Of a stretch of DNA of 64,000 nucleotides, positions 16,740 to 47,510 are shown in pieces. The stretch comes from Halieaceae bacterium (lineage in GTDB: Bacteria > Pseudomonadota > Gammaproteobacteria > Pseudomonadales > Halieaceae). The position numbers and the translations under genes are program-made. The notes below the pieces were generated by a model. It was not told where the DNA came from, ran no database searches, and worked only from the letters and a program-made list of their open reading frames with translations. The stretch is taken from positions 2,977 to 66,976 of the forward strand of contig JAHEEV010000008.1 of the NCBI GenBank assembly GCA_024640505.1, read 5' to 3'. Each line of letters opens with the position of its first letter. Positions within the stretch are counted from its first letter, which is position 1.

Positions 16740-16761
16740 AAACAGTCAGTCCGTACTGTTT
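16740..16761. promoter_or_regulatory. Operator-like palindrome, site a (AAACAGT-N8-ACTGTTT)
   Basis: ATAAAACAGTCAGTCCGTACTGTTTATAT lies in the 190-bp divergent region between SDR 15893..16672 and Rieske 16863..18254. It belongs to the recurring AAACAG...CTGTTT family (see findings). Confidence 0.45.
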
Positions 16762-16862
16762 ATATGAAAAATAATGGAAACCCGGCACGAGCGTGAAGGA
16801 ATTTGTGAGGTCGTCTTGCGCGACACGGCGACTGGGGCACTCAGCGACTTAGAGTAAACACC

Positions 16863-18254
16863 ATGGGAAAGAAAGTATCATCGAGCGACCCGGATAGACT
16901 GGCCCGCTCGCCGGGCAGGTCCTACCAGGAACTCCTGAACGAAGAGACGAACCCGGTCCCGGACTGCCTCCGGGAAAATACCAACCCCTACCTGGGTTCC
17001 GGGAACCTGTCCGTTGACCGCTATCTATCCCGGGAATTTCACGAGAAGGAAGTCGAGCACATCTGGAGGCGCACCTGGCAGGCCGTGTGCCGAGAAACCG
17101 AAGTTGCCGGGCCGGGCGATACACATGTCTATGATATCGTGCGCTTTTCCATCATCGTTTGCCGCACGCAAGAGGGCTCACTGAGAGCCTATCGCAACGC
17201 CTGCCTGCACCGCGGTCGACAACTCGTGGATCAGAACGGCAACTACGAGAAATTCAGCTGCCCCTACCACGCCTTTACCTGGAGCCTGGAAGGAGCGTTC
17301 AAGGGGGCCCCGTGCAAGTGGGATTTTCCCCATATCGATCCCGACAGGTTCGGCCTGCCACAGGTCCAGGTGGATACCTGGGGCGGCTGGGTGTTCATCA
17401 ACATGGATCGGGAGGCACCGCCGCTGCGCGACTACCTGGGTGTGCTGCCGGAACATTTCAAGCGCTGGAAGCCGGAAAACGCCTACAAGATGATACACGT
17501 GGAGAAGGTCATTCCGTGCAACTGGAAGGTCGGCTGGGAGGCATTCATCGAGTCTTACCATGCCGTGGCCACGCACCCCCAGATCCTTCACTATACGGCC
17601 GACGCCGACTCCCAGTACGATGTCTGGCCACCCCACATCAGCCGCACTATCACCGCCCTGGGCGTGCCGTCTTTCCACCTCGACGCTATAACAGACCAGC
17701 AGGTGGCGGATGCCATGCTGGGGGTTTCCGCCATGGTTGCCAGGCCTGACGGAACAGAAGTGCCCAGCGGCATGAGTGCCAGGGAGTTCATCGGCGTGAA
17801 GAATTCGGCAGAATTCAGCAAAAACCACGACCGGGAACTGGCGAGCTTCGCCACCAATGCGGAGCGCATGGACTCAATTCTCTATTCGATATTCCCCAAC
17901 TTCGCGCCATGGGCAGGCTTTCACCCCAACATCACCTACCGCTTCCGGCCCAACGGTGACGATCATACGACCGCGCTCATGGAGATCATGGTGCTGTGTC
18001 AGCTGCCAACGGGGGCGGAGCACCCCGGGGACTGTCCGGCTCGGCGCATGGGTGAGGACGAACTGTTTTCAGAGGCTCCGGAACTGGGCCCGGGCCTGGG
18101 CACGATCTTCGACCAGGACCTGTTTAACATGCCCATGATCCAGAAGGGCATGCACAATGTGGAGTCGCGGGAGCTGGTACTGGCCAACTACCACGAGGTC
18201 CGCATCCGGCACTTTCACCAGACCATCGACAAATATATCAACGGGGAGCTGTAA
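16863..18254 (+). CDS. Rieske [2Fe-2S] non-haem-iron oxygenase, alpha subunit type (paralogue 1)
   Basis: Rieske motif CLHRGRQL...CPYHAFTW (CxH...CxxH). Large C-terminal catalytic domain. Full-length paralogue of 22219..23604. No beta subunit gene adjacent. Confidence 0.9.
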   Translation: MGKKVSSSDPDRLARSPGRSYQELLNEETNPVPDCLRENTNPYLGSGNLSVDRYLSREFHEKEVEHIWRRTWQAVCRETEVAGPGDTHVYDIVRFSIIVCRTQEGSLRAYRNACLHRGRQLVDQNGNYEKFSCPYHAFTWSLEGAFKGAPCKWDFPHIDPDRFGLPQVQVDTWGGWVFINMDREAPPLRDYLGVLPEHFKRWKPENAYKMIHVEKVIPCNWKVGWEAFIESYHAVATHPQILHYTADADSQYDVWPPHISRTITALGVPSFHLDAITDQQVADAMLGVSAMVARPDGTEVPSGMSAREFIGVKNSAEFSKNHDRELASFATNAERMDSILYSIFPNFAPWAGFHPNITYRFRPNGDDHTTALMEIMVLCQLPTGAEHPGDCPARRMGEDELFSEAPELGPGLGTIFDQDLFNMPMIQKGMHNVESRELVLANYHEVRIRHFHQTIDKYINGEL

Positions 18255-18327
18255 AGACCCCGCGCCGTGGCGCGCTGAAGATTTGCCTGCGCGTGGTCCG
18301 GCGTCTTTACCGGGGAGCGCGGCCGGG

Positions 18328-18831
18328 TCAGTCCGCAACACCCGGTACCGTCCCCTCATGAGACGCGTGGGCGATCTTGTCCCCGTCGAACAGCAGGCTC
18401 ATCTCCGGGATGAGTTCTATAACGACCCGCAGCGGCGTGTCCAGGTATGCCAGTGCGGCCTCGGCGGTCGGCGCCGGGTAGGGAGAAATGATCTCCGCCA
18501 TGGCGGGGTAAAACCAGTCCTTGGTGGCCTGGTCTTCATGCAGCACCACCCTGCCCTTGTAGGTGATCTGCTTGCCGGGCCCCATATCCGTGCCCATGCT
18601 GGAAATGACTACCGTAGCTCGAGGATCCCGCTGCAAAGCCTTGATGCGGGGCCGCTGGCGGGTAGCGGTCAGCCAGATGGAGCCATCCTTCGCGACGTAG
18701 TTCATGATCACGCCCATACCGTGACCTTCCTTGTTGGTCCAGATAAAGTTGCACTCGATCTGCTTCTCCAGCAGCTCCTGCTCCCGCTCCGGTGACAAGC
18801 GGTAAATGGTGACGTCTTCATAGCCCTGCAT
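18328..18831 (-). CDS. Pyridoxamine 5'-phosphate oxidase (PPOX) / flavin- or F420-binding split-barrel family protein
   Basis: 167 aa. NFIWTNKEGHGMGVIMNYVAKDGSIWLTATRQRPRIKALQRDPRATVVIS fits the PPOX-class split beta-barrel pattern. SD GGGAGAG lies 6 nt upstream of the ATG. Confidence 0.7.
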   Translation of the reverse strand: MQGYEDVTIYRLSPEREQELLEKQIECNFIWTNKEGHGMGVIMNYVAKDGSIWLTATRQRPRIKALQRDPRATVVISSMGTDMGPGKQITYKGRVVLHEDQATKDWFYPAMAEIISPYPAPTAEAALAYLDTPLRVVIELIPEMSLLFDGDKIAHASHEGTVPGVAD

Positions 18832-18866
18832 GACGATCTCTCCCTGATTGGTTGTGTGTCGTTCCG

Positions 18867-19625
18867 CTATTCGAAGCGGGGCAGATGCCCCATCTGCTGC
18901 CCACCCGCCAGATCCAGTACCTGCCCGTTGATGTAACCGGATCTTCCCTCGTCAGCCAGGAACAGGGCCGCCTCGGCCACGTCATCCAGGGTTCCCATCC
19001 GGCCTGCCGGGGTCTCCCTGAGGTGGCCCTGTACGACCGGATCCATCTCGAACAGCTCGGCAGTCATATCGGTATTTATCAGGCCGGCCGCGATTGAATT
19101 GAAGCGCACCTTCTGTGCCGCGTACTCCACCGCGGCGACCTTGATGGCGTAATCGATACCCGCTCGCGCGGCAGAGTAGACGGCCAGGCCGGGGCCGGGA
19201 ATACGCGCGGTCAGTGAAGACATGGTGATCACGGAACCCCCGTCGGACATGGCGGCGGCAGCGTGTTTGAAAAATAACAGTGCGCCGATGAAACTGGTTT
19301 CCAGGGAAGGCCGGATCTGCTCGGCAGTCAAATCCGCGATGGCGCCCGCGGCATAGTTGCCGGCGGAATAGACACCGATATCGACCCGGCCATAGTGCTC
19401 ACGTACCGCCGAAAACAGCCGCTCGATCTGCTGCTCGTCGCTGACGTCGCAACCGACCGCCAGGCCCCCGAGTTCCGAGGCCAGCGCCCGCAAAGGCTCT
19501 TCACGGCGGGCCGTCACCACCACATTGGCGCCCTCGGCGCCCAGTCGCCGCGCAATGGCCGCGCCGAAATTGGCCTTGCCCGAGGCGCCCATTATCACTG
19601 CCGTCTTGCCGGCCAGAGTTCCCAT
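18867..19625 (-). CDS. SDR family oxidoreductase (atypical: YSAAR instead of YxxxK)
   Basis: Rossmann N-terminus KTAVIMGASGKANFGAAIARRL and NSIAAG. The active-site tetrad position reads VYSAARAG (codon CGA), so the usual Lys is Arg. SD AGGAGGA upstream. Confidence 0.85.
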   Translation of the reverse strand: MGTLAGKTAVIMGASGKANFGAAIARRLGAEGANVVVTARREEPLRALASELGGLAVGCDVSDEQQIERLFSAVREHYGRVDIGVYSAGNYAAGAIADLTAEQIRPSLETSFIGALLFFKHAAAAMSDGGSVITMSSLTARIPGPGLAVYSAARAGIDYAIKVAAVEYAAQKVRFNSIAAGLINTDMTAELFEMDPVVQGHLRETPAGRMGTLDDVAEAALFLADEGRSGYINGQVLDLAGGQQMGHLPRFE

Positions 19626-19747
19626 GCAGGTTTCCTCCTGTTATGAATAGACAATGCCCGCCACCCGGGGCCACAGGCGGGCTTGCGGAACCCGGGCTCC
19701 GTGGAACCCCTCGGGCACCCTCACCGGTGTTTCACCCGGACAGTCTC

Positions 19748-21370
19748 CTACTGGAGCCCCACCCGTTCTTTTATCCGCCGCCGCAGGACATCCTTGCGCA
19801 CCTTGCCGCTGGCGGTGCGCGGCAGTTCGTCGACCACCTCCACGTGCTGGGGAATCTTCTGTTTCGCCAGGCCGGCTTCATCGGCAAAGGCAGCCACCAG
19901 GGCGAGGTCTGGCACCACCTCCGCAGACTCCGGGATCACGAAAGCGCAGACACCCTCCCCCAGCCGCTCGTGGGGCATGGCTACCACGGCCGCTTCCCGA
20001 ATGCCCGGGTGGTCGTGGAGCACGTCCTCCACCTCCTTGGCGCTGATATTCTCTCCGCCGCGGATAATGATGTCCTTCTTGCGATCAGTGATGAGAATGG
20101 CGTCATCCGCGGTACGCTGGCCTATATCACCGGTGAGGAAAAAGCCGTCACTGTCATGGGCTTCTGCATCCTGTCGGGGATCGGCATAACCCAGCATCTT
20201 GCCCGCACCCCGTGCGGCGATTTCACCGTCCTCTCCGATGCCCAGTTCCTTGCCCTCCTCATCGAGGATCTTCACCTCGTAGCCGAATATTTTGCCATCG
20301 GTCTCGGCAGCCAGTTGCCGCTCCCCCTCGCCGACGAAGCCCAGGGTGATAATGGGCACCTCGGTACTGCCATAGACCCTGAAGGCCCTGCAGTTATCCA
20401 AAACCTCCCAGGCGCGGGTGACCACCTGTGGTGGCACCGCCGCGCCCCCGCAGGCAAAGAGGCGCATGCTGGGCAGGCCGGTGCCGGCGCGCTCTGCGGC
20501 GTCTACCAGCTCCACCAGGAAAGGTGTCGCCCCTACACTCGCCGTGGCGCCTACTTTCTGAATGAATGCTACTGCGGCATCCGCGTCCCAACGGGCCATC
20601 AGCGCGGACTTGGTCGGGGTCACGAATGGCAACACCATCCCGGAGCCATAACCGGTGATATGGGTAACGGGCGACGGCATCAGCATGACGTCGCGCTCAT
20701 CCAGCTGCCAGTAGTCCCGGGAATTATGGATGACCCGGGTCAGGGTATTGTGGCTGTGGAGCACCGCCTTGGGGTTGCCGGTGGTGCCCGACGTGTAGAG
20801 GATCGCCTTGATGCAATTGGGATCTATCGCCGGCAGCGTGGCGAGATCGGCCGCCTCATTGTTCACCAGGTTCTCGTAGCACAGCATCCCGGGGTGCTCA
20901 TCCTGCGCCCTTACCGTGACGATGTATTCCAGGTCTGGCAGGTCCGGCTGCAGGCCGGCCAGCATCGAGGGAAACTCCAGGCTGCGTATCTGCTCGGGAA
21001 TGTAGATCAGGCGGGTGCGCGCGTCCTTGAGGATGAAGCGCAGCTCATGGTCGCGGTAGATGGGTATCACCGGATTGACGATCAGGCCCATTGCCGAGGC
21101 GGCAATGTCCAGCACCACCGACTCGCGCCAGTTGGGCAACTGGAAGCTGACCACGTCGCCCTCCTTCAGGCCCAGCCCGCGCAGACCGGTCACCAGTCGC
21201 AGGGCCTCATCGGCGATAGCGCCGTAGGTGATGGGCGGCTCGTCCTCGAGGTAGATCGCCACCTCGTCCGGCATTTTCTCCGCCTTCTCCCAGGCCGCGG
21301 TGGCGATGGTCTTGTTGAACCAGAGGTGTTGGTCCCGCTCTATACGCGCCTGGCTCAGGGGATTTTTCAT
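19748..21370 (-). CDS. Acyl-CoA synthetase (AMP-forming adenylating enzyme, ANL superfamily)
   Basis: AMP-binding motif YTSGTTGNPKAV, also TGDIG and a C-terminal ...GKVRKDVLR. Confidence 0.9.
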   Translation of the reverse strand: MKNPLSQARIERDQHLWFNKTIATAAWEKAEKMPDEVAIYLEDEPPITYGAIADEALRLVTGLRGLGLKEGDVVSFQLPNWRESVVLDIAASAMGLIVNPVIPIYRDHELRFILKDARTRLIYIPEQIRSLEFPSMLAGLQPDLPDLEYIVTVRAQDEHPGMLCYENLVNNEAADLATLPAIDPNCIKAILYTSGTTGNPKAVLHSHNTLTRVIHNSRDYWQLDERDVMLMPSPVTHITGYGSGMVLPFVTPTKSALMARWDADAAVAFIQKVGATASVGATPFLVELVDAAERAGTGLPSMRLFACGGAAVPPQVVTRAWEVLDNCRAFRVYGSTEVPIITLGFVGEGERQLAAETDGKIFGYEVKILDEEGKELGIGEDGEIAARGAGKMLGYADPRQDAEAHDSDGFFLTGDIGQRTADDAILITDRKKDIIIRGGENISAKEVEDVLHDHPGIREAAVVAMPHERLGEGVCAFVIPESAEVVPDLALVAAFADEAGLAKQKIPQHVEVVDELPRTASGKVRKDVLRRRIKERVGLQ

Positions 21371-21415
21371 AGTCGCGACGCTCCCGTGTGCAAGCCCGGA
21401 TGGAAAAGGAGTGAC

Positions 21416-22192
21416 TTAAAGGCTGGACAGTACATGGCCGCCATCAACCGTCAGGGCCGCACCGGTCATGAGTGCGCCGGCCGGTGAAGCCAGCAGCAAC
21501 AGCGGGCCATTCAGATCCTGGAGGTCTCCGACCCGACGCTGGGGAATGCGACGGATCATCTCCTGCCCCGCTTCGGATGCCAGCCAGCCGCGGTTCAGGT
21601 CGGTCTCAAAATAGCCGGGGCAGATGGCGTTCACCCGAATTCCGTGCTCGGCCAGCTCCAGCGCCGCTGTGCGGGTGAACTGCACCACCCCGGCCTTTGA
21701 CGCGGCGTAGTTGGTCAGCAGTTTCTGCTCCCGGTGGGCCAGGATGGAGGCGATATTGATCACGCTGCCGCCGATGCCCGCGGCAATCATGCGCTGTGCA
21801 GACTCCCGGGTCACAAACGCCAGGCCGTTGAGGTTGGTATCAATCACCCCGGACCAGTCGTCGTCCTCGAGGTCCACCAGGGGTTTGGGGATAGTGATGC
21901 CGGCATTATTGACCACGACCGATACGGTACCGAAGGTTTGCTCCGCGGCGTCGAAGGCGCTGGCGATGCTGGCGCTTGACGTGACATCCATGGTGACCGC
22001 CACAGCCTCTCCACCGGCTTCGTTAATCTCATCACAGGCGGCCTGAACCCGCTCGCTGCGACGGGCTGCCAGGACGACTTGCGCACCGGCCCTGGCCAGC
22101 ACCGCGCCAAAATGGCGACCGAAGCCACTTGAAGCGCCCGTCACGAGGGCGGTTTTACCCTCCAGCAGGAATGGCTGGAACAGGTCATTCAT
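21416..22192 (-). CDS. SDR family oxidoreductase
   Basis: TGASSGFG, NNAG, YAASKAG. Confidence 0.9.
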   Translation of the reverse strand: MNDLFQPFLLEGKTALVTGASSGFGRHFGAVLARAGAQVVLAARRSERVQAACDEINEAGGEAVAVTMDVTSSASIASAFDAAEQTFGTVSVVVNNAGITIPKPLVDLEDDDWSGVIDTNLNGLAFVTRESAQRMIAAGIGGSVINIASILAHREQKLLTNYAASKAGVVQFTRTAALELAEHGIRVNAICPGYFETDLNRGWLASEAGQEMIRRIPQRRVGDLQDLNGPLLLLASPAGALMTGAALTVDGGHVLSSL

Positions 22193-22218
22193 GTCTCACC
22201 CTCTCTTGGTTGCCCGCG

Positions 22219-23604
22219 TCAGGCGTAGACATATTTATCCAGGGTCTGGTGGAAATGCCGGATGCGGATCTCCTGGTAGTTCCCCAGCACCACTTCACCG
22301 GACTTCAGGTTTTTCAGACCCCGCTGCACCATCTTCAGGTTGCTGAAGTCCTGGTCGAAGACCCGGCCCAGCCCCCCTTCCAGGCCTTCGGCCTCGGAGA
22401 ACAGCTGGTCCTTGTCCAGCCGCTGCACCGGGCAGTCCACAGGGCGATCCTCTCCCTCGGGGTAGCGCATCAGGACAATGATCTCCATGGTGCACATCTC
22501 GTGGTTGTCACCATAGGGTTTCATACGATAGGTCAGGTTGGGATGGAAACCCGCCCAGGGCGCGAAGTTGGGAAACAGGGAATACAGGATCGAATCCATG
22601 ATTTCGCTATGTGTGCAAAAACTTGCAAGGTCTGTTTTGTACTGCTCGGAGAAGGCACTGAAGTAATAATCCGCCAGCCATTCCCGGGCTGTCATGCCCT
22701 CGGGGACCTCCATCTTTTCGCCGCCTGCCAGCAGGTTCGCATGCTGCAACCAGTCGTTGACGGTCTGGCCGGGTTCGACATTTTCCAGGTGCGGGCTGAC
22801 GACCCCCATGGGCGAAATGGTGCGGCTGACGTTGTCCCCCCAGCAATCGTACTGGGAGTTGGAGTCCCCCAGGTAGGGCATTATCTGCGGGTGGGTCTGC
22901 ACGGTGTGAAAGGACTCGATGAAGGCCTCCCAGGCCACCTTCCAGTTGCACTCGATCACCTTCTCCACATGCAGGGCCTTGAACGTATTCTCGGGCTTCC
23001 AGCGGGTGAAGTGTTGCGGCAGGATTCCCATGTAACTCTGCAGTGACTCGGCCTCCAGGTCCATGTTCATGAAGACCCAGCCACCCCAGGTATCCACCTG
23101 CACTTGCGGGAGAGAAAACTCACTCTTGTTGATGTGGGGGAAATCCCACTCGCAGGGTGCCCCCTTGAAATCGCCCTCGAGGCTCCAGCGGAAGCCGTGG
23201 TAGGGACACTTGAATTCCCGGGCGTTACCACAGTCCTTGCGCAGCTGGCGGCCGCGGTGCAGGCAGGCGTTGTGATAACCCTTCAACGCGCCGGACTCAG
23301 TGCGTGTCACCACGATGGAGTAGGTGGTGATATCGTGGACAAAGTAGTCCCCGGGATTGCCGATTTCTGTTTCCCGGCAGACCGCCTGCCAGGTGCGGTT
23401 CCACATTTTCTCCACTTCGAGCTCGTGGAACTCGCGGCTCAGGTACCGGTCCACCGACAGGTTGTCGGAGCCCAGGAAGGTGTCGGTGCTCTCGCGAAGA
23501 GGGGCGGGCACGGGGTTGGTCTCTCTGTCCAGCATCTCCTGGTAGGTATCGCCATCGGAGCGGGTGACTACCCGGCCGTCCTCCAGCTCAATACTTCTGC
23601 TCAA
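22219..23604 (-). CDS. Rieske [2Fe-2S] non-haem-iron oxygenase, alpha subunit type (paralogue 2)
   Basis: CLHRGRQL...CPYHGFRW. Shares long identical blocks with 16863..18254 (NLSVDRYLSREFHE, RTWQAVCRETE, QVQVDTWGGWVF, FPNFAPWAGFHPN). The ORF track starts at 23823, inside the upstream thiolase gene. I place the start at TTG 23604, 6 nt after AGGAGA (23616-23611), giving 461 aa against 463 aa for the paralogue. Confidence 0.9.
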   Translation of the reverse strand: MSRSIELEDGRVVTRSDGDTYQEMLDRETNPVPAPLRESTDTFLGSDNLSVDRYLSREFHELEVEKMWNRTWQAVCRETEIGNPGDYFVHDITTYSIVVTRTESGALKGYHNACLHRGRQLRKDCGNAREFKCPYHGFRWSLEGDFKGAPCEWDFPHINKSEFSLPQVQVDTWGGWVFMNMDLEAESLQSYMGILPQHFTRWKPENTFKALHVEKVIECNWKVAWEAFIESFHTVQTHPQIMPYLGDSNSQYDCWGDNVSRTISPMGVVSPHLENVEPGQTVNDWLQHANLLAGGEKMEVPEGMTAREWLADYYFSAFSEQYKTDLASFCTHSEIMDSILYSLFPNFAPWAGFHPNLTYRMKPYGDNHEMCTMEIIVLMRYPEGEDRPVDCPVQRLDKDQLFSEAEGLEGGLGRVFDQDFSNLKMVQRGLKNLKSGEVVLGNYQEIRIRHFHQTLDKYVYA

Positions 23605-23614
23605 AATGTTTCTC

Positions 23615-24760: not shown

Positions 24761-25195
24761 TCAGTCTCCCGCTGCCACCGGCTTGAAGAAAAAGCTGATG
24801 ACCTCGTCGCCGTTGTCTTCTGTACGCCAGGTCTCGAATACCACGTCCATTTCCATTCCAATCTGTATTTTGTCGGGGTCGTTCTCCGTAAGCCGCCCTT
24901 CTACCCGCACGCCGCCCGGCAGTTCGAGATAGCCCACGCCGTAAGGCTTGAAAGTCTCCGGCGTCTCGCCGCTGAGGTAGGGTGGCTTGGGCATGAACTG
25001 CTGCACGGTCCAGGTCCACAGCGTCCCGCGGGTGGGCAGTTCCTCGACCGATACATCCTCGCCGCTGCAGGCCATACAGGATTGCGCTACCGGAAAAGTG
25101 GCAATACCGCAGTTGTTGCACCGACTGCCCAGCAGGGCCGGGTTATCCGCAGGCCAGGTGAACAGGCCCTCGGCGATGGGAAGTTGCTTACTCAT
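24761..25195 (-). CDS. Zn-ribbon + OB-fold protein (DUF35 family), thiolase partner
   Basis: ATG at 25195. Rubredoxin-like CNNCGIATFPVAQSCMACSG (CxxC...CxxC) followed by an OB-fold-like C-terminus, the usual DUF35 architecture. Confidence 0.85.
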   Translation of the reverse strand: MSKQLPIAEGLFTWPADNPALLGSRCNNCGIATFPVAQSCMACSGEDVSVEELPTRGTLWTWTVQQFMPKPPYLSGETPETFKPYGVGYLELPGGVRVEGRLTENDPDKIQIGMEMDVVFETWRTEDNGDEVISFFFKPVAAGD

Positions 25196-25255
25196 GGTTT
25201 TCTCTGGTCTCACCTCTTCCCGACACAATAATCAGGGACGGCCGGGGATATGGCC

Positions 25256-26736: not shown

Positions 26737-26754
26737 AAACAGTCCCGTCTGTTT
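26737..26754. promoter_or_regulatory. Operator-like palindrome, site b (AAACAG-TCCCGT-CTGTTT, perfect arms)
   Basis: Located in the 149-bp divergent region between CCO 25256..26662 and SnoaL 26812..27240, 69 and 57 bp from the two start codons. Confidence 0.5.
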
Positions 26755-27240: not shown

Positions 27241-27257
27241 TACCGGGTACCAGCGGC

Positions 27258-34793: not shown

Positions 34794-34797
34794 GACC

Positions 34798-37064: not shown

Positions 37065-37096
37065 GGTCAGGCGGCGGTCAGGCGGCGGTCAGGCGG
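37065..37096. repeat. 11-bp tandem repeat (GGTCAGGCGGC x 2.9) spanning the stop codon of the acyl-CoA dehydrogenase gene
   Basis: The repeat GGTCAGGCGGC GGTCAGGCGGC GGTCAGGCGG was read directly. On the coding (minus) strand each unit carries a TGA. Confidence 0.8.
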
Positions 37097-38196: not shown

Positions 38197-38288
38197 CGTC
38201 GGACCTCAAAGCATTAAAGTTAACCTGAGCCCGCGGGCACGCCATGCAAGAGGCCATGGCGTCACAGATCAGATCTTCGTTGGCGCGC

Positions 38289-39778: not shown

Positions 39779-39802
39779 AATCAGTCAATTCTGTTTGTTT
39801 TT
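39779..39802. promoter_or_regulatory. Operator-like palindrome, site f (AATCAG-TCAATT-CTGTTTGTTTTT)
   Basis: Located in the divergent region between CCO 38289..39719 and TonB-dependent receptor 39895..42348. 32 of 38 ungapped positions are identical to site d and its flank. Confidence 0.5.
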
Positions 39803-39894: not shown

Positions 39895-42348
39895 ATGACT
39901 ATCCAGCGCCTGGCTGCAGGTACCCTGCTATTGTTGCCCGCAATGGCGGCATTTTTATTGCCGGGCGCTGCACAAGCCCAGGAGCCGGAAACCCTGAAGA
40001 AAGAACTCGCACTGGAAGAGGTCATCGTGACCGCCAGCCGACGTACCGAACGTTTGCAGGAGGTGGCCATGTCGGTCTCAGCCTTCGGCAGCGATTTCCT
40101 GCAGGACAGCGGTATCAACGATCTCTCCAATCTGGAAGAGTACACGCCGAACTTGAAGATCACACCCGGACCAAACGCTCGCGCGACCTCTTTCAGAATC
40201 AGGGGAATCGGCTCGGCCGGCACTAACTCCGGGATAGACCCCAGTGTCGGCATTTTCCTTGATGGCATCTACCAGGGTCGCGCCGGAATGAGTATCAGCG
40301 ATCTGGTGGATGTAGAGCGGGTGGAAATCCTCAGGGGGCCACAGGGCACCCTGTACGGCAAAAACACTGCTGCCGGCGCTCTCAGTGTTATCACCAAGCG
40401 GCCCTCGACCGAGTTTGAGTCCCTGCTTGAACTGAACTACGACAGCAATGAAAAACTGGAATTGCGCGGCACGGTCAACCTTCCCCTGGGCGAGTCCGGA
40501 CACGCCGTCCGCCTGTCGGCGTTCGCCGTGGACGGCGAGCACCTGTATGAGAATAGCTACAATGGCGAGGGACTCAACGACGCCAACAAGTGGGGAGGAC
40601 GGGCCCGCTTCCTGCTGGATATGAGCAGTCGTGACGGCGATGAAGGCCTCGGCGAGTTCCTGGTCACCCTCGACTACACCAAGGAGGACAAGGACTGCTG
40701 CGCCTTCGCGGTCATCGACTATAATGGCCTGTCCCCGCTAAACACACCTGCAACCAACAACCCCTCTGCTGAATGGCAGGCCATGCTGGGACTTAACGAC
40801 CAGGGCAAACCCATCCTCCAATACACCGCCTTCGAGGATTCGGAAGGTTTTTCTCCACCAGATCCCGACCCCTTCGGCGATGACTACTGGCTCGACGGCG
40901 ATCTTCGCAGCAAGATTGAAGTAGGCGGCCTTGGGGTCGAATGGAATCGCGACATGGCCGATGGAAATACGCTCACCTTCATCAACGCCTGGCGGTTCTA
41001 TGAGAACGACAGCGCCTTCGATGGCGATTTCACCGCCTATGAGGCTTCTCTGGCTTCGGACCTGGTCGATCTCGACCAGTATTCATCCGAGCTGCGCATC
41101 GCCACTCCCGCCGGCCAGACATTCGAAGGTCAGGCGGGCCTCTATGCCTACTATTCCGAGTTTGATTCAGTCGGCGTATTCGCCCAGGGCCAGAGTCTGT
41201 ACGAAAATGCGATAGTCCGGATTGAGGGCACCACGATAGATGCGCCCATGTCGATTTTTTTCCCCAATGGTTCGGTCAACACCGACGACAACACCTATAC
41301 AACCACCAGCTATGCAGCTTTCGGGCAGCTGATATGGAACATAAACGAAGAATTCAGTGCCACTCTGGGTCTGCGCTACACCTATGAGAAAAAGGAACGC
41401 GAGGGAACCCAGACCAGCGATCCGGTTCCACCTTTCGATGTGGATCTCCCACCCATCGCCGGACCGAATGTCGAATACGACAATAAACGCAGTGATAGCA
41501 ATATCTCGCCTTCTTTCAACCTCCGCTACTTTTTCAGCCCCGATGTGATGGGCTACGCCTCGATAAGCCGGGGCTTCAAATCCGGTGGGTTTGACCAGCG
41601 ACGTGTAGCGGTGGGTAATGACGGGGAGTTCGACGAGGAAACTGCCACCAACTACGAACTGGGCTGGAAAACCACTTTGTACAACCGCCGCCTGCAGTTC
41701 AACGGGACCCTGTTCCTGGTGGATTATGAGGACTTCCAGGCCCAGTCCTTTGACGGTGCACAGGTGCGCGTCACCAACGCCGGAGACCTGCGCAGTTACG
41801 GTTCCGAACTCGAATTGGTATTTCTCCCCGTGGCCAATATGACCATTGGTAGCGCCATCGGCTACGTCAAGGCAGAGTACGAATCCTTCGACAATGGCCA
41901 GTGCACCATCGAACAGGTTTTTACCAAATACTATATCGAGGATGGCGCACAATTTGGCTCCCCGGGAACACAGAGTATCTGTAAGCAGGACCTGGCCGGC
42001 AAGCCCCTGGACAATGCACCGGAGTGGACTATCAGCTCCTATATCCAGTACGACTTTGACCTGGGTGAGAATCTGGTGGGCATTGCACGCCTGGAACACA
42101 GCTTTATTGACAGCTACTATCTTGACCAGGACCTCGATGAAAACCTGCAAAACGATGAAGTAAACCTGGTGAATTTCAGGCTGACCCTGGCCCATGCCGC
42201 CCGCAACTGGGAGGTGGCACTCTGGGGTCGCAATATGCTGGATGAGGAATACTACTCCTGGGGCCTGGATATTCCGACACTGGGTGGCTATGCCGGCATC
42301 GTCGCGCCAGAGGCTACCTACGGGGTCACCCTGCGCTGGATGAATTAG
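39895..42348 (+). CDS. TonB-dependent outer-membrane receptor
   Basis: Signal peptide ending AAQAQE. TonB-box/plug region LEEVIVTASRR ... VERVEILRGPQGTLYGKNTAAG. 22-strand barrel-type repeats. C-terminal ...TYGVTLRWMN. Confidence 0.9.
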   Translation: MTIQRLAAGTLLLLPAMAAFLLPGAAQAQEPETLKKELALEEVIVTASRRTERLQEVAMSVSAFGSDFLQDSGINDLSNLEEYTPNLKITPGPNARATSFRIRGIGSAGTNSGIDPSVGIFLDGIYQGRAGMSISDLVDVERVEILRGPQGTLYGKNTAAGALSVITKRPSTEFESLLELNYDSNEKLELRGTVNLPLGESGHAVRLSAFAVDGEHLYENSYNGEGLNDANKWGGRARFLLDMSSRDGDEGLGEFLVTLDYTKEDKDCCAFAVIDYNGLSPLNTPATNNPSAEWQAMLGLNDQGKPILQYTAFEDSEGFSPPDPDPFGDDYWLDGDLRSKIEVGGLGVEWNRDMADGNTLTFINAWRFYENDSAFDGDFTAYEASLASDLVDLDQYSSELRIATPAGQTFEGQAGLYAYYSEFDSVGVFAQGQSLYENAIVRIEGTTIDAPMSIFFPNGSVNTDDNTYTTTSYAAFGQLIWNINEEFSATLGLRYTYEKKEREGTQTSDPVPPFDVDLPPIAGPNVEYDNKRSDSNISPSFNLRYFFSPDVMGYASISRGFKSGGFDQRRVAVGNDGEFDEETATNYELGWKTTLYNRRLQFNGTLFLVDYEDFQAQSFDGAQVRVTNAGDLRSYGSELELVFLPVANMTIGSAIGYVKAEYESFDNGQCTIEQVFTKYYIEDGAQFGSPGTQSICKQDLAGKPLDNAPEWTISSYIQYDFDLGENLVGIARLEHSFIDSYYLDQDLDENLQNDEVNLVNFRLTLAHAARNWEVALWGRNMLDEEYYSWGLDIPTLGGYAGIVAPEATYGVTLRWMN

Positions 42349-42362
42349 GAGTCGCTATCATC

Positions 42363-43166
42363 ATGCCCCACGACAGCATCATCTCCACAGATCAGGGCAC
42401 CGGCCGTGTCGCAGCGGCAAAAAAACCGGGTTTCTACTACAACTGGGGGCCCCAGGCGTGGATCGACATGTGGATGTCGAACACCATGCTGGTGAAGAAG
42501 GCGATGCCGATCATCAGTCACACTTTCGTGCCCATTCTGCGTCTGTCCGGTGATAAGGAACAGGTGGATCGTGATTACGATGAGATCAAATCCCGTCGGG
42601 AACCGGTCAAGTGGTCCGACTCACCCAGGGAGAAATGGCGCAAGCGCTACGGCAATTTCGTCCGGGAAGCGGAGTGGGCCCTGCTGGAACTGCGCCGGTA
42701 CTACAGCCAGAAGCAGTACGAGGAGATTGTCATCGGTACATCCGTCGCCCTCTCCCACGAAAACTCCCCCGAATTTCTCAAGATGATGAACAGCATGTCG
42801 GACAAGAACAAAAACAAGAAGGCAAAGCCCTCAAAAGACGGCAGCCGTCGACCAGGGCGCTGGAGCACATTCCTGTTCGAAACATTCAATCCCGCCCATT
42901 GGCTCACGGGCCGGGCCACCATCACGGAATTCGACCCGGCCAACGGCCTTACCGTCATGGAGATACCCGACTGCGCCTGGCACACCTGCGGCCCCAGGGA
43001 GCGGCTACCCAATCCCGATGCCCTGCCGGAGGAAGGTTGCCTGAATATCTGCAAAGGCCCTTTCGAAGCGCTGTTCAATGGTGAAGGCGGTGGCCTGAAA
43101 ATGGAGTTCGAGCCGCATCTGCCGGAAACCTCCTGCACCGTGCGCATGAGCTGGGCGACCAGGTAG
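42363..43166 (+). CDS. Hypothetical protein with Cys-rich C-terminal domain
   Basis: Starts 14 bp after the receptor gene. No signal peptide. The C-terminal pattern PDCAWHTCGP ... EEGCLNICKG ... ETSCTVRMSW (C-x4-C, C-x3-C, C) faintly recalls the ATC-hydrolase-like fold family, but this is a weak recollection only. Confidence 0.6.
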   Translation: MPHDSIISTDQGTGRVAAAKKPGFYYNWGPQAWIDMWMSNTMLVKKAMPIISHTFVPILRLSGDKEQVDRDYDEIKSRREPVKWSDSPREKWRKRYGNFVREAEWALLELRRYYSQKQYEEIVIGTSVALSHENSPEFLKMMNSMSDKNKNKKAKPSKDGSRRPGRWSTFLFETFNPAHWLTGRATITEFDPANGLTVMEIPDCAWHTCGPRERLPNPDALPEEGCLNICKGPFEALFNGEGGGLKMEFEPHLPETSCTVRMSWATR

Positions 43167-43167
43167 T

Positions 43168-43374
43168 GTGTCCCTGTTGAGTGATTTTCTTGCCCCGCGA
43201 AAACGCCTGCTACGCCAGGCGCGTGAAATCAGGCAATTGAAAAAAGAGCTGGACGCGCTGCAGGCCCGGAACGCCAGCATGAGCGAGGGGATGCGCCGCT
43301 GCATTAACTGCGAGTATCGCATCGACTTCAAGAACCGGCAGGGGCAGGCCCCCGTCAAGATTTCCAACCCGTGA
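43168..43374 (+). CDS. Possible small protein (68 aa, coiled-coil N-terminus, CxxC)
   Basis: GTG lies 1 nt after the preceding stop. It fills an otherwise unexplained 225-bp gap in a tight operon. Most codons end in G/C like neighbouring genes. RRCINCEY motif. No homology recognised. Confidence 0.4.
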   Translation: MSLLSDFLAPRKRLLRQAREIRQLKKELDALQARNASMSEGMRRCINCEYRIDFKNRQGQAPVKISNP

Positions 43375-43390
43375 AACAGAGAGGACTACC

Positions 43391-44263
43391 ATGTCAGTAA
43401 TACTCGTCACCGGGGCCAGTACCGGTATCGGCCAGGCAACCGCCCTGCACCTGGCCAGTAAAGGGCACCGTGTTTTTGCCGGGGTGCGCAGCCCTGATAC
43501 TGCCACTGAACTGAAAAATAAAATCGCCGCCGACGATGTACCCGTGGAACTGGTCCAGCTGGATATCACCGACCAGCCATCCGTAGACCGGGCCATCAAC
43601 GACATCATGGCCAGTGCCGGACGCATCGATGCCCTGGTCAACAACGCCGGGATCGGCGGTGGACGTGCCGTGGAGGAAACGCCTCTGGAAGAAGTGCGGG
43701 AGGTCTTCGAAACCAATTACTTCGGCACGGTGCGTATGCTGCATGCGATTACCCCGATTATGCGTGAACAGCGCTCGGGACGGATCGTCAACATGAGCTC
43801 ACTGGCAGGCCGGATGGTTTTCGGCTGCCATGGACACTACTCCGCAGCCAAGTGGGCCCTGGAAGGCCTGAGTGAGGCCCTGGCCTTTGAAATGGCGGAA
43901 TTCAATGTTCGAGTGGCCCTGATCGAACCCGGTACGGTCCCGACTCCGGCCTGGGAAAAAGGCACGCCACCGCCGGACGATACCCATTACACCAACAGCC
44001 TGCAGCGGCTCGCCGCCTGGGCGACACATACCATGAGTAACCCTGCCGCCCCACTCGACGTTGCCGTTGCGGTAGCCCACGCCATCGAGTCCGACACGCC
44101 CCACTTCCGCTATCCGGTGGGACAGGACGCCATAGAAGATATTGCCGGCCGCTTCAGCGTCACCGACGATGAGTGGATCGAGGCCAATCGCCTGCAGGGA
44201 GAGGCCTTTTATGAGCGCTGGGAGGAAATCGTCGGGGTAGACTACTTCCGATACCAGACCTGA
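43391..44263 (+). CDS. SDR family oxidoreductase
   Basis: SD GAGAGGA upstream. TGASTGIG, NNAG, YSAAKWA. Confidence 0.9.
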   Translation: MSVILVTGASTGIGQATALHLASKGHRVFAGVRSPDTATELKNKIAADDVPVELVQLDITDQPSVDRAINDIMASAGRIDALVNNAGIGGGRAVEETPLEEVREVFETNYFGTVRMLHAITPIMREQRSGRIVNMSSLAGRMVFGCHGHYSAAKWALEGLSEALAFEMAEFNVRVALIEPGTVPTPAWEKGTPPPDDTHYTNSLQRLAAWATHTMSNPAAPLDVAVAVAHAIESDTPHFRYPVGQDAIEDIAGRFSVTDDEWIEANRLQGEAFYERWEEIVGVDYFRYQT

Positions 44264-44304
44264 GATTCACCTGACTCCGAAATTGAAGGAACCTACCGGA
44301 CAAT

Positions 44305-45093
44305 ATGAAGCAGATAGCGGGCCGCGTCGCGGTGGTTACAGGAGCGGGCAGCGGTATTGGACAGGCCCTGAGCCTGGAACTCGCAAAGTGCGGCGCGGAC
44401 ATCGCGCTGGTCGATATCGATTCAGGCCGCCTGGCTGATACCCGCGAGGCCGTTGCAGCGCTGGGCAGGAAGTGCAGCGCTCACGCTGTGGATGTTTCCC
44501 GCCGCGAGCAGATGGCCGCGCTACCGGATCAGATCCTGGCGGAACACGGGGCTGTTCATATTCTGGTGAACAATGCGGGGGTATCGGTAAACAAGAGCTT
44601 CGCCGAGCAGGAAGTCGACGACCTCGAGTGGATCACAGGAATCAATTACTGGGGCGTCATGTACGGCTGCAAGTACTTCCTGCCCCATCTGGAAAGAGCG
44701 GACGAGTCCCATATCGTCAACATGTCCAGTTCCGCGGGCTTGACCGGGATGAAGGGACAGAGCTCCTATGCAGCCACCAAATTCGCCGTGAGAGGACTGA
44801 GTGAATGCCTCTACGTCGAACTGGCCAACACCGGGGTTGGAGTTACCTGTGTCCACCCGGGAGCCGTGGCAACCAATATCCTTGAAGCCGCGCGCATGGA
44901 CCCCGCACACAAGAAGAAAATGCTCAAGTCCTTCCACCTGGCCATGCCGCCAGAGACCGCGGCGCGTCTTATTGTGAAAGCCATCAGGAAAAACCGGTTC
45001 AAGCTTGTGTTCTGTGTCGATTCCAGAGTACTGAATTTTATGCAGCGCGTGGCGCCCATCGGTACGCTGAAGCTCATGCGGCTGCTCGCCTGA
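44305..45093 (+). CDS. SDR family oxidoreductase
   Basis: TGAGSGIG, NNAG, YAATKFA. Confidence 0.9.
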   Translation: MKQIAGRVAVVTGAGSGIGQALSLELAKCGADIALVDIDSGRLADTREAVAALGRKCSAHAVDVSRREQMAALPDQILAEHGAVHILVNNAGVSVNKSFAEQEVDDLEWITGINYWGVMYGCKYFLPHLERADESHIVNMSSSAGLTGMKGQSSYAATKFAVRGLSECLYVELANTGVGVTCVHPGAVATNILEAARMDPAHKKKMLKSFHLAMPPETAARLIVKAIRKNRFKLVFCVDSRVLNFMQRVAPIGTLKLMRLLA

Positions 45094-45107: not shown

Positions 45108-46139
45108 TTACAAGCGGGTCAGAACCTTGCACTGATGACTGGGTGTGCGCAGCGCCTCGAAAGCTTCGGGCAGTTGCTCCAGGTCGACCACGTCCGTGAT
45201 CATGGGTGATATGTCGATACGCCCCTCCCCCAGCATGGCGATACAGGTCTCGAAGTCATCCCGTGTGTAGGCGATGGCGAACTGGATATGCAGTTCCTTC
45301 ACCAGACCGAAGAAAGGCATGATGGCGTCGGGTTGTTCGCACACACCCACCGGAATGATCTTGCCGCGCTGTGGCGCCATTTCGATACACTGCTGCAGTA
45401 GTCCCGGTGCCCCGACACACTCGAAGATGATATCCGGTGGGCCTCCGGCCACATCGCTGAACTGGGCCAGCAGGGTCTCCGCATCGGCAGAGGGATCCGG
45501 CTGAATTACGCCGGTGGCACCCATCTTCCTGGCCAGTTCCGCCCGCGTATCCGCCATCTCACTGACCACCACCTCTCGAGCGCCAAAAAACCGCGCCCAC
45601 AGAGCGACGGTCAAACCTATCGGCCCGGCGCCGATCACCATCACCCGGCTGCCCGCCTTGAGGTCAGACACCCGCACTGCGTGAATACCCACGGCCAGGG
45701 GCTCAATCAGCGCAGCCCGTTCCAGTTCCAGGTTGTCCGGCAGCAGCAGGGTCTCCCGGGAACCGGCATTGACGTACTCGGCAAACCCGCCGGGGGAATT
45801 GACGCCGGACAGAAGTTTGTCCTGACACTCGAAGAAACGGCCGGTAGCGCAGGCGGCACAATGACCACAGGCCAGAAACGGGATAGAACATACTCTGTCC
45901 CCGACTTCCCAGTTGCCATCCGCCCTGGGTCCCACCTCGACGATTTCGCCCACATATTCGTGACCAAGAATCTGGCCGCAGCAGGCTGTGGTAAGGCCCT
46001 CCCGGGTAGCGTGGAGGTCGGTTCCGCAGATGCCGCAGTAACCCACTTTAATGACCAACCCATCTTCACGGGGTACGGGATCGGCAACGGACTCCACTTT
46101 CAGCGGTTTACCGACCTCTTTGAATACGGCAGCCCTCAT
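45108..46139 (-). CDS. Zinc-dependent alcohol dehydrogenase (MDR family)
   Basis: CGICGTDLH, GHEYVGEIVEVG, structural-zinc cluster CGHCAACATGRFFEC, Rossmann VIGAGPIG. Confidence 0.9.
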   Translation of the reverse strand: MRAAVFKEVGKPLKVESVADPVPREDGLVIKVGYCGICGTDLHATREGLTTACCGQILGHEYVGEIVEVGPRADGNWEVGDRVCSIPFLACGHCAACATGRFFECQDKLLSGVNSPGGFAEYVNAGSRETLLLPDNLELERAALIEPLAVGIHAVRVSDLKAGSRVMVIGAGPIGLTVALWARFFGAREVVVSEMADTRAELARKMGATGVIQPDPSADAETLLAQFSDVAGGPPDIIFECVGAPGLLQQCIEMAPQRGKIIPVGVCEQPDAIMPFFGLVKELHIQFAIAYTRDDFETCIAMLGEGRIDISPMITDVVDLEQLPEAFEALRTPSHQCKVLTRL

Positions 46140-46151
46140 CCGGATCTCCTG

Positions 46152-47402
46152 TTATGCAGCAGTGACATCGACGGGGTCGAAGGTGATGTGCAACTCCTTG
46201 AGGCCGCGCAGCACCACATTCGGCCAGTGCGTCAGGTCGTTCTTGCCCTCCGCCAGCCGAATGTTGGTTAATCTCTGCAGTAGTTTGGTATAGGCCACCT
46301 GCATCTCCTTGCGTCCCAGGAAAGCTCCGGGGCAAAAGTGTGTGCCGTAACCAAAAGCGATGTGGTCGTCCGCATTTTTGCGGCATACATCCATCTGCTC
46401 AGGGTCATCGAACACTCGCTCATCGCGATTAGCCGACGCGTAGCGCAGCATTAACAGGGAGTCTTTGGGTATCGATATGCCGTTAATCTGGGTATCCCGG
46501 GTCACCACGCGCCACAGACCCGCGGAGGGTGATTCGAGCCGAAGTATCTCCTCTACGGCATTGTCGATCATGGCAGGGTCATCACGGAGCGTATGCATCT
46601 GGTCAGACAACTGGATCAGGGATAACAGGCCGCCCGACAGGGCCGACGTGGTCGTTTCATTGCCTGCCACCAGCAGCTGCTCGATCATGCTGATCGCTTC
46701 CTGCATGTTCATCTTTCGACCGTCTTCGATCTCGATGTTGACCAGGTCGGAGATCATGTCGTCTCGCGGATTTGCGCGGCGGTCCTCGACCACCTTCGCC
46801 ATATAGTGCTGGTATTCCACAATCAGCCGGGCATTCTCCACCTCCTCTACTGCAGAGGCCATCCCACCCAGGCGGGAGGCAAAGGCGTCAGACCAGGCCT
46901 TGATCCTGCGCAGATCCTCCCGGGGCACACCCAACTGGTCGGCAATCACATAGACTGGCAGCGGTGTGGCGAAATCGTGTACAAACTCGCACTCGCCCCG
47001 GTCGATAAAGGCATCGATCAACTCGTCGACGATCTGCTCCATGTAGGGGCGCATCTTTTCCACCCGCTTGGCGGAAAATACCTTGTTGATCAGCGAGCGA
47101 TAGACCTTGTGACGGGGCGGGTCCATGGTTAACAGGGTGTCGACGGGCTCATAGCCACTGGCGTAAATCTCTGCCGCTTCAGGCGAGGGATCCGGCCCCT
47201 TGAGCACATGCATGAAATCGTTGGAGAAGGTGGCGGTATCCTTGGCCGCGCGGCGAACGTCCTCGTAGCGGCTCAGCATGAATATATTGGTGCCCGGCAA
47301 CTGGTACACCGGCGCCTGCTGCCGCAGGACCTGGTAAAACTCGTGGGGGGACTCGATCACCTCGGGATCAAAGAAGTCAAAGTCGTCGGCACTCTTCTTC
47401 AT
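46152..47402 (-). CDS. Cytochrome P450 monooxygenase
   Basis: Haem-thiolate loop FGYGTHFCPGAFLGR, I-helix LLVAGNETTTS, K-helix EEILRL. Confidence 0.95.
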   Translation of the reverse strand: MKKSADDFDFFDPEVIESPHEFYQVLRQQAPVYQLPGTNIFMLSRYEDVRRAAKDTATFSNDFMHVLKGPDPSPEAAEIYASGYEPVDTLLTMDPPRHKVYRSLINKVFSAKRVEKMRPYMEQIVDELIDAFIDRGECEFVHDFATPLPVYVIADQLGVPREDLRRIKAWSDAFASRLGGMASAVEEVENARLIVEYQHYMAKVVEDRRANPRDDMISDLVNIEIEDGRKMNMQEAISMIEQLLVAGNETTTSALSGGLLSLIQLSDQMHTLRDDPAMIDNAVEEILRLESPSAGLWRVVTRDTQINGISIPKDSLLMLRYASANRDERVFDDPEQMDVCRKNADDHIAFGYGTHFCPGAFLGRKEMQVAYTKLLQRLTNIRLAEGKNDLTHWPNVVLRGLKELHITFDPVDVTAA

Positions 47403-47487
47403 TCAGTGTGTCCTCGCCCGCATTTTCCGGCAGCGCTTTATCAATATTGGTCTGGGACCGGGGACAACACATTAGCGAATAGAAAAT

Positions 47488-47510
47488 AAACAGTCAAATC
47501 TGATTGTTTT
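47488..47510. promoter_or_regulatory. Operator-like palindrome, site d (AAACAG-TCAAAT-CTGATTGTTTT)
   Basis: Located in the 170-bp divergent region between the P450 and the SDR/ThuA/ACAD/Rieske operon, 82 and 61 bp from the start codons. Confidence 0.5.

Follow-up and report, generated by a model that had tools for sequence, protein, structure and literature searches.

Locus and gene content

The window analysed here is the whole 64,000-nucleotide stretch of contig JAHEEV010000008.1 (positions 2,977 to 66,976) from the Halieaceae bacterium assembly GCA_024640505.1. It encodes a catabolic cluster, located at approximately 15.4-51.5 kb on the basis of Pfam, NCBIfam and PDB searches, in which a single gene coding for a TetR-family regulator is found (32982-33680, hereafter TetR 32982). 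Six copies of a palindromic element related to AAACAG-N6-CTGTTT are present in the promoter regions of this cluster (Table 1). Judging from their sequences, these six sites are very likely the operators of TetR 32982, which would be a CymR-related repressor, released by a ligand, of about 11 transcription units. An original prediction, made from the letters of the window, had attributed all the sites to this one local TetR. This attribution is supported by the conservation of the sites, by their linkage to TetR homologues and by a shared recognition helix and half-site; the predicted multi-operon set was recounted and comes to some 33 genes in about 11 transcription units, instead of the 30 and 9 initially given.

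Table 1. Features of the catabolic cluster and its surroundings (positions in the window; CCO, carotenoid cleavage oxygenase; SDR and MDR, short- and medium-chain dehydrogenase/reductase; ABM, ABM-family monooxygenase).
Feature	Position	Strand	Description
Candidate repressor gene, TetR family	32982..33680	+	232 aa; recognition helix SRGAMLHHF, CymR-like
Site 1, AAACAGTCAGTCCGTACTGTTT	16740..16761		N10 geometry, AAACAGT-N8-ACTGTTT, the only N10 site of the six; flanks: SDR gene 15893-16672(-) / Rieske gene 16863-18254(+)
Site 2, AAACAGTCCCGTCTGTTT	26737..26754		Perfect N6; flanks: CCO gene 25256-26662(-) / SnoaL gene 26812-27240(+)
Site 3, AAGCAGTCAACCCTGATT	29240..29257		Flanks: MDR reductase gene 28124-29188(-) / ABM gene 29337-29681(+)
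Site 4, AAACAGTCGGTCTTGTTT	32932-32949 (element 32925..32949)		3' of TATAAT 32904-32909; 33 bp 5' of the TetR ATG; additional conserved everted half-site CTGTTT at 32925-30
Site 5, AATCAGTCAATTCTGTTT	39779..39796		Flanks: CCO gene (ATG 39719, minus strand) / TonB-dependent receptor gene 39895-42348(+)
Site 6, AAACAGTCAAATCTGATT	47488..47505		Flanks: P450 gene 46152-47402(-) / SDR gene (ATG 47574)-48334(+)
Putative -35 TTGACT, leftward promoter	29244..29249	-	Inside operator 3; reverse complement of the conserved AGTCAA
Same putative -35 arrangement	39783-39788, 47492-47497		Operators 5 and 6
Putative extended -10 TGcTAACTT, rightward promoter	29276..29284	+	17 nt after TTGTTT 29256-29261 (right arm of operator 3)
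Equivalent putative extended -10 boxes	39815-39823, 47524-47532		TGaTACTGT and TGaTAATTT, respectively
Left of site 1	15374..16672	-	SDR 15893-16672, SnoaL_4 15374-15886 (Pfam)
Right of site 1	16863..18254	+	Rieske oxygenase alpha subunit (Pfam)
Left of site 2	18328..26662	-	Eight genes: apocarotenoid oxygenase-like CCO, ChsH2-type OB-fold protein, thiolase-like protein, Rieske, SDR, AMP-ligase, SDR, PNPOx-like (Pfam, PDB)
Right of site 2	26812..27722	+	SnoaL-like protein, 139-aa ORF without family match
Left of site 3	28124..29188	-	MDR-type (ADH_N_2) oxidoreductase
Right of site 3	29337..32879	+	ABM monooxygenase, molybdopterin oxidoreductase, luciferase-like monooxygenase
E1-alpha, E1-beta and E2 genes (2-oxoacid dehydrogenase)	33810..37004	+	Downstream of TetR; 129-bp gap without operator
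Left of site 5	37078..39719	-	Stilbene-oxygenase-like CCO, acyl-CoA dehydrogenase
Right of site 5	39895..45093	+	TonB-dependent receptor, 267-aa protein without family match, two SDRs
Left of site 6	45108..47402	-	Cytochrome P450, Zn-alcohol dehydrogenase
Right of site 6	47574..51488	+	SDR, ThuA-like protein, acyl-CoA dehydrogenase, Rieske oxygenase
Second TetR gene (TetR-2)	52964-53560	-	TetR_N and TetR_C_31 domains

The operator sites in the window

The coordinates and sequences proposed for the six sites were all reproduced in the DNA of the window, as were the 20-mer CAGTCAA-NN-CTGwTTGTTTT said to be shared by sites 3, 5 and 6, the TATAAT box and the everted arrangement CTGTTT-T-AAACAG (32925-32937) at the TetR promoter, and the distances claimed between sites and flanking start codons, which are of 52-102 bp. 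Site 1 can also be parsed from position 16744, as AgTCAG-N6-CTGTTT. The simple pattern AAACAGN6CTGTTT with at most two mismatches gave 8 matches in the window, for an expectation of 1.1 +/- 0.9 in 100 dinucleotide-preserving shuffles, none of which reached 8. The two extra matches (6820 and 56986) lie within long open reading frames (6709-9909 and 56649-57977) and score less than 6 bits with a position weight matrix of 30 columns built from the six sites. When both strands of the window were scanned with this matrix, the six sites scored 35-49 bits and the best unrelated position 5.8 bits; each site was also found again by the matrix built from the other five. The absence of the motif from the remaining intergenic regions of the window, as claimed in the original prediction, is therefore correct, and the concern then raised, that the motif might be general in AT-rich intergenic DNA, was not borne out, since it occurs nowhere else in the window and gave no hit in reversed or complemented control sequences.

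The conserved element is longer than the 18-mer first described: it extends over about 27 bp and is asymmetric (wwwwAAwCAG-TCnnnn-YTGwTTkTTTT). A reading of the palindrome as a hairpin or terminator was ruled out, terminator-like sites being found in none of the six regions. Sites 5 and 6 share a further likeness of about 25 bp on the 3' side of the operator (39800-39835 and 47508-47535; TTTTwAaAGGGGssTTTGATA), of which orthologues keep TTTG.TA, corresponding to the extended -10 box, and not the G-run.

Conservation in related genomes

Using TetR 32982 as query against the representative genomes of GTDB, we obtained 80 loci, inspected over +/-10 kb around the TetR gene, in which TetR is 57-80% identical and synteny is well conserved; according to the record titles they belong mostly to genera of the Halieaceae (Halioglobus, Haliea, Seongchinamella, Litorirhabdus). 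The footprinting of orthologous loci suggested with the original prediction showed that the sites are both specific and conserved. With the matrix derived from the window, 238 distinct sites of at least 18 bits were detected in these loci (1.28 Mb), whereas the same DNA reversed or complemented yielded no site; not one of the 238 lies inside the orthologous genes mapped by tblastn. They occupy the same promoter classes as in the window: (i) between the MDR gene and the ABM or molybdopterin oxidoreductase (Moco) gene, as site 3 (42 unique sites in a single orientation), (ii) upstream of TetR, as site 4 (about 43 sites), (iii) between CCO_25256 and SnoaL, including ChsH2-OB / SnoaL arrangements, as site 2 (29 unique sites), (iv) between CCO_38289 and the TonB receptor gene, as site 5 (15 sites), (v) upstream of the acyl-CoA dehydrogenase gene g37078 (57 sites) and (vi) upstream of SDR_47504, as site 6 (5 sites, including sites of 39.8-41.2 bits in loci L012, L025, L055 and L060). 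The consensus given above was drawn from 235 unique sites; its positions A1, A2, C4, A5, G6, T14, G15, T17 and T18 are nearly invariant, and the information content falls to about zero directly beyond the motif edges. The motif orientation is fixed relative to the adjoining genes.

The genes flanking site 1 fall outside the 80 loci, and 20 metagenome loci carrying the Rieske protein (16863) were therefore retrieved. A related operator lies upstream of this gene in 10 of the 14 orthologues with readable upstream DNA; six of these operators fit N6 with 0 or 1 mismatch, and the other four fit N10 perfectly and N6 with one mismatch. The remaining four orthologues are inside an operon, behind a CCO gene. 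A second palindrome, TTGATCyrGATCA, is found about 20-25 bp to the left of the operator of this Rieske gene in several loci (L082, L083, L086, L088, L094, L096 and L097/L098). It is FNR/CRP-like (TTGAT-N4-ATCAA), is not evident at positions 16673-16862 of the window, and may bring oxygen-dependent or global control to this promoter in some genomes.

Regulon membership differs between genomes. In L002 (11918-14236) and similar loci, nitroreductase, dienelactone-hydrolase and MaoC-like genes and one unassigned gene, which are not in the cluster of the window, diverge from the acyl-CoA dehydrogenase operator. Another gene without counterpart in the window cluster, coding for an aldehyde dehydrogenase, is inserted directly upstream of TetR in L007, L013, L018, L019, L039 and L045.

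At the TetR gene itself, an operator was found at most 220 bp upstream in 42 of 79 loci (above 18 bits) to 51 of 79 (above 12 bits). In most of the remaining 28 loci, TetR abuts or closely trails the preceding gene, either in the order Moco-LLM-TetR (LLM, luciferase-like monooxygenase), where most gaps measure 2-17 bp, or behind an inserted aldehyde-dehydrogenase gene that runs with its stop codon right up to the TetR ATG, and the operator precedes that operon where the contig extends to it. A few loci have a degenerate operator only, or none, for TetR. The autoregulation layout noticed at site 4 is thus kept in nearly all related loci, with an operator at TetR or at its operon.

Relatives in Alphaproteobacteria

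Plasmid-borne TetRs of Sphingobium sp. RAC03 and Croceicoccus marinus (37-39% identical to TetR 32982) are each associated with two perfect AAACAr-N6-yTGTTT sites, located in the region of about 220 bp that separates the TetR gene from a divergently transcribed SDR-Rieske operon; one example, AAAAACAGTCATGATTGTTTTTT, is 35 bp upstream of the TetR start. The chance expectation for such sites was estimated by hand at about 4e-4 per region. The recognition helix SRGAMLHHF is identical in the Halieaceae, Sphingobium and Croceicoccus TetRs. On Pseudosulfitobacter plasmids, the operon of a CymR-like TetR carries ACAAACAA-ACTAAG-CTGTTTGT.

Homologous TetRs are encoded on four megaplasmids: pBSY17_1 of Sphingobium sp. 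RAC03 (L103), pCME4A9I of C. marinus (L104), pHR1a of N. resinovorum (L105) and pNL2 of N. aromaticivorans (L106). The enzyme set around them includes E1-alpha/beta/E2, alpha-only Rieske oxygenases, SDRs, ThuA, OB-fold and thiolase proteins, NTF2/SnoaL, a TonB-dependent receptor, a P450 and an acyl-CoA dehydrogenase. As TetR homologues occur amid a similar enzyme set, the pathway seems to be common to marine Gammaproteobacteria and Sphingomonadales. The promoter of the Rieske-SDR-Rieske-ThuA operon of L105 (9970-10150) contains AAATCAA-TC-TTGATTT, with half-sites of this same type at N2 spacing; besides N6 and N10, this suggests spacing variants in 4-bp steps within the TetR subfamily.

Half-site spacing

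Perfect matches to AAWCAR-Nk-YTGWTT were counted over the window and 100 related loci, 1.47 Mb of Halieaceae DNA in all. Spacing N6 gave 221 matches (0 in the reversed control) and N10 gave 119 (1 in the control); no other spacing exceeded 7 matches (4 in the control). Among the 119 N10 matches, 112 are nested in N6 sites (63 share the left half with an N6 site and 49 are shifted by 4 bp) and seven stand alone, including site 1 of the window. Each arm therefore consists of tandem half-sites 4 bp apart (AAAC|AATC|AG and CTGA|TTGT|TT). Two models remain for the way in which such operators may be occupied. Either a single dimer would bind the N6 core, or the unit of a dimer would be N10 and the N6 operator would represent two overlapping N10 sites holding two dimers, by analogy with QacR; the latter would explain a footprint of 27-28 bp.

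Site 1 was also considered as a one-off 4-bp duplication of an N6 site (AAA[CAGT][CAGT]CCGTACTGTTT, compared with AAACAGTCAGTCCTGTTT in L087). This idea was weakened, and is only partly tenable, since the CGTACTGTTT arm recurs in N10 relatives at L096:1453 and L094:32; site 1 is treated as a member of a conserved N10 class on the basis of these sequences.

Promoter layout

Site-anchored ungapped alignments, made class by class, revealed two more conserved blocks, one on each side of the operator at a distance of 17-19 bp. The right block (TGnTAnnnT) matches an extended -10 box; the left one, for example CAacaTA or ATAgTAgCA, is the same box in reverse complement. Conserved right blocks read TCTGcTAC.tT / aTTTG.TA..GT, and the left block gCAacaTAgc is conserved in the 42 orthologues of site 3, where a promoter scan of the minus strand returned TTGACT, a 17-nt spacer and TATGTT. 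From the right-arm TTGTTT to the right -10 box, the distance is of 17 nt at sites 3, 5 and 6. Since each divergent operator has a putative extended -10 box on both sides, it would cover both -35 hexamers; as it would hold both -35s of back-to-back promoters, the fixed motif orientation and the shared 20-mer could be explained. These boxes are assigned by their match to the consensus. At the TetR promoter, the element is placed differently: the operator is 3' of the -10 box and is preceded by a conserved everted half-site (gcCTGtTT.AATCAG), and the consensus of this class over 41 loci is gcCTGtTT.AATCAGtC..g.tTGTTTTT.

The candidate repressor

TetR 32982 contains a TetR_N domain (Pfam PF00440, E = 1e-16, residues 34-80), and its AlphaFold2 model, based on a 48-sequence alignment (pLDDT 80.6), has ten main helices in the canonical TetR fold. 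All 50 matches listed by Foldseek for this model are TetR-family regulators (E 3e-6 to 3e-4, TM-score up to about 0.6). These structural neighbours are generic TetRs only, so the effector could not be deduced from structure. In a PDB search, the best match reached 43.5 bits and the matches were restricted to the helix-turn-helix; with no curated NCBIfam model at its cut-off, no close TetR in the PDB and generic Foldseek neighbours, neither an effector nor a pathway could be named by these routes. A general homologue search returned, among the matches listed, only orthologues of at least 71% identity. The Pfam scan of the proteins of the cluster (14-52 kb) gave no other DNA-binding family, three open reading frames being without a family match.

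The second TetR of the window, TetR-2, adjoins a multi-haem cytochrome c gene (51656-52921, minus strand) and is divergent from a 418-aa open reading frame without family match (53672-54928, plus strand).

Enzymes of the cluster

The two CCOs were distinguished by the PDB search, one being nearest to the stilbene-cleaving NOV1/LsdA (314 bits) and the other to the apocarotenoid oxygenase of Synechocystis (202 bits). The three Rieske oxygenases are encoded as alpha subunits without beta subunits and have no more than distant relatives among solved structures. Two acyl-CoA dehydrogenases, a pair formed by a thiolase-like protein and a ChsH2-OB protein, and many SDR/MDR reductases are also encoded. 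None of the proteins of the cluster reached the cut-off of a curated NCBIfam family. The E1-alpha, E1-beta and E2 genes are probably expressed by read-through from the TetR promoter; in L012 and L025 they are located directly behind an operator.

Two gene starts deserve a comment. In the Rieske gene 22219-23823, the longest open reading frame shares about 205 nt with the 3' end of the thiolase-like gene (23615-23823; also in related loci such as L001, 1567-1772), and as the Rieske domain begins only at residue 144 the true start is probably internal. The longest open reading frame of the molybdopterin oxidoreductase likewise overlaps the ABM gene (29452-29700); orthologue alignments begin near residue 84-94, and the true start is therefore probably at about 29.7 kb.

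Proposed mechanism and alternative explanations

The observations can be accommodated in the following scheme. In the ligand-free state, TetR 32982 would bind the pseudo-palindrome of about 27 bp. In the five divergent regions the operator would sit exactly between two back-to-back promoters and contain the -35 of each (bottom-strand TTGACT and top-strand TTGTTT, separated by 6 bp); since both would lie inside one operator, a single bound repressor could block both directions. At the TetR promoter, the position of the operator just 3' of the -10 box points to autoregulation. A substrate or an intermediate of the pathway would free the repressor, and the approximately 11 units and 33 genes would be switched on jointly. 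These include the two presumably alkene-cleaving CCOs, the three alpha-only Rieske oxygenases, the P450, the TonB-dependent receptor and the SDRs, and further an acyl-CoA ligase, the acyl-CoA dehydrogenases and an aldolase-thiolase-like pair.

Several points weigh against this scheme. The promoter scan of the six regions called only two of the proposed boxes, the rest being consensus matches, and AGTCAA, TTGTTT and the A and T tracts could owe their conservation to promoter elements rather than to protein contacts. In N. resinovorum HR1a and N. aromaticivorans pNL2, which make up half of the four sphingomonad relatives inspected, no clean N6 site lies close to TetR. Concerning CymR, its best-known operator is N10 and not N6, so the half-site match gives no single shared geometry. 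The CymR sequence used in the comparisons, which we take to be the right one, agrees with the ten residues named in PMC12980060 (G25, D39, W68, Y70, E71, I91, R133, N134, V137 and E139), and this is its sole check.

The sites could be operators of a different regulator, either TetR-2 or a global PsrA-like regulator of fatty acids or lipids encoded elsewhere, the adjacency of TetR 32982 being incidental. The TetR-2 gene is only 1.5 kb past the last regulated operon, the beta-oxidation-like genes of the regulon are of a kind controlled by PsrA- or FadR-type regulators, and the view of the other genomes is restricted to the surroundings of TetR. However, TetR-2 is not a credible binder: the matrix scan of the window gave no motif at its promoter, its recognition helix is another one (SRAAIILRF), its similarity to CymR is generic (22.7 bits) and it has no orthologue in the 80 loci. 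The motif moreover accompanies the homologues of TetR 32982 into Alphaproteobacteria, and the Pfam scan of the cluster, in which three open reading frames had no family match, brought up no DNA-binding family besides TetR 32982; a different regulator is thus improbable. It is also quite improbable that the element is mainly a matter of promoter architecture, that is, a shared pair of divergent -35 boxes accompanied by UP-like A/T tracts, or a promoter recognised by an alternative sigma factor. AGTCAA is indeed TTGACT in reverse complement, conserved -10-like boxes are found 17 nt away from TTGTTT and the orientation is fixed with respect to the flanking genes, but the most invariant part is the symmetric AA.CAG / CTG.TT at a fixed N6, which does not correspond to sigma-70 elements. 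Furthermore, the element is 3' of the -10 box at the TetR promoter, it recurs beside alphaproteobacterial TetR homologues with differing flanks, and its half-site equals that of a known TetR operator (CymR). The promoter features themselves are compatible with an operator, as operators can overlap -35 boxes.

If TetR 32982 is retained as the binding protein, it might act as an activator or a dual regulator. A few TetR-family proteins activate, and FasR is named 'HTH-type transcriptional activator', but characterised members of the family are overwhelmingly repressors, and operators overlapping -35 regions or placed 3' of a -10 box form an occlusion layout. CymR is also described as a repressor (PMC12980060). 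Activation is thus highly improbable, and repression by TetR 32982 would be the more consistent mode. The probability that the sites resemble each other by chance, through low-complexity AT-rich DNA or as a dispersed repeat or duplicated promoter cassette without regulatory role, is practically negligible. Sites 5 and 6 are alike for about 25 bp past the motif, and the intergenic DNA is AT-rich relative to a genome of 59% GC; yet the shuffle and reversed-sequence controls gave about 0 sites, the flanks are otherwise unrelated, conservation in the 80 genomes is limited to the motif and the -10 blocks, and no terminator-like hairpins occur. The shuffles, the matrix scan, the reversed controls and this motif-limited conservation effectively refute a chance or repeat origin.

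Significance

The regulon of TetR 32982 could mark an uncharacterised catabolic system that is widespread in Halieaceae, with a related form on sphingomonad megaplasmids. The system might act on conjugated-alkene or terpenoid-like substrates of algal or plant origin (apocarotenoids, stilbenoids), taken up via the TonB-dependent receptor, and be controlled by a CymR-clade repressor reading half-sites in 4-bp steps (N2, N6, N10). Taken as a whole this picture is tentative and rather unlikely to hold in every part. If true, it would imply two overlapping dimers per 28-bp operator or an unusually flexible dimer, and a new ligand-responsive switch orthogonal to cumate. The OM60/NOR5 (Halieaceae) clade is described in PMC10100682 as abundant in coastal waters, where it responds to blooms of phytoplankton. 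Even ahead of any experiment, the operator set would delimit some 33 genes as one functional unit and thereby guide the search for the substrate. The CymR clade would gain a much larger natural operator set (more than 230 putative operators with the half-site AAwCAG), which brings the N6 versus N10 question to a widely used repressor. TetR 32982 and its operator may also serve as a candidate inducible switch or as a biosensor for a hydrophobic metabolite.

Comparison with known systems

CymR, the regulator of the 'cumate switch', is a TetR-family repressor widely used in synthetic biology, with no solved structure (PMC12980060). TetR 32982 shares 34% identity with it over the N-terminal 128 aa (70.9 bits) and 27% in a multiple alignment; no TetR of the PDB aligns to TetR 32982 as well. 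The recognition helix of CymR, SRGAQSHHF, is near-identical to SRGAMLHHF. Cumate is an unlikely effector, since the C-terminal, ligand-binding third aligns weakly. The published CymR operators are P2-CuO AACAAACAGACAATCTGGTCTGTTTGTA and P1-CuO AAAGAAACAAACCAACCTGTCTGTATTATC (PMC1654148). The half-site ACAAACAG of CuO corresponds to ACAAwCAG of the Halieaceae operators, the arms of both (ACAA|ACAG|AC in CuO) are 4-bp-phased repeats and both operators are of about 28 bp. Read as N10, site 1 has exactly the geometry of P2-CuO (AAACAGA-N8-TCTGTTT). In contrast, five of the six sites of the window and 221 orthologous sites have N6 between CAG and CTG, whereas CuO has N10; P1-CuO also parses as N6 with one mismatch. 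The regulon is larger as well, with about 11 units against two for CymR, and its genes (CCOs, alpha-only Rieske oxygenases, P450, TonB-dependent receptor, E1/E2) are unrelated to the cym/cmt genes of Pseudomonas putida F1. The p-cymene/p-cumate gene content was not found in the cluster, where no curated NCBIfam equivalog was reached. CymR itself was looked for in the plasmid collection and was not found, the relatives there being at most 39% identical.

The KstR-type regulons of actinobacterial lipid and steroid catabolism likewise combine a TetR-type repressor and a short palindrome over many dispersed oxidative and beta-oxidation-like operons, and Kendall et al. reportedly defined the KstR regulon in 2007 largely by motif conservation. 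They differ in phylum and enzymes, and the KstR motif, TnnAACnnGTTnnA, is unlike that of the Halieaceae; the NCBIfam KstR model scored 28.7 bits against TetR 32982, for a cut-off of 280. QacR places two TetR dimers on one 28-bp operator. The conserved footprint of about 27-28 bp described here, with half-sites nested 4 bp apart on both arms, resembles this arrangement purely by analogy.

No publication describing this Halieaceae regulon was found in a literature search. In summary, the proposed system is of a known kind, in which a TetR repressor and palindromic operators govern a catabolic cluster, and is comparable to the CymR and KstR regulons. What is new is the Halieaceae regulon itself, its conservation with related sphingomonad versions, and a large natural set of probable CymR-clade operators with N6/N10 geometry.

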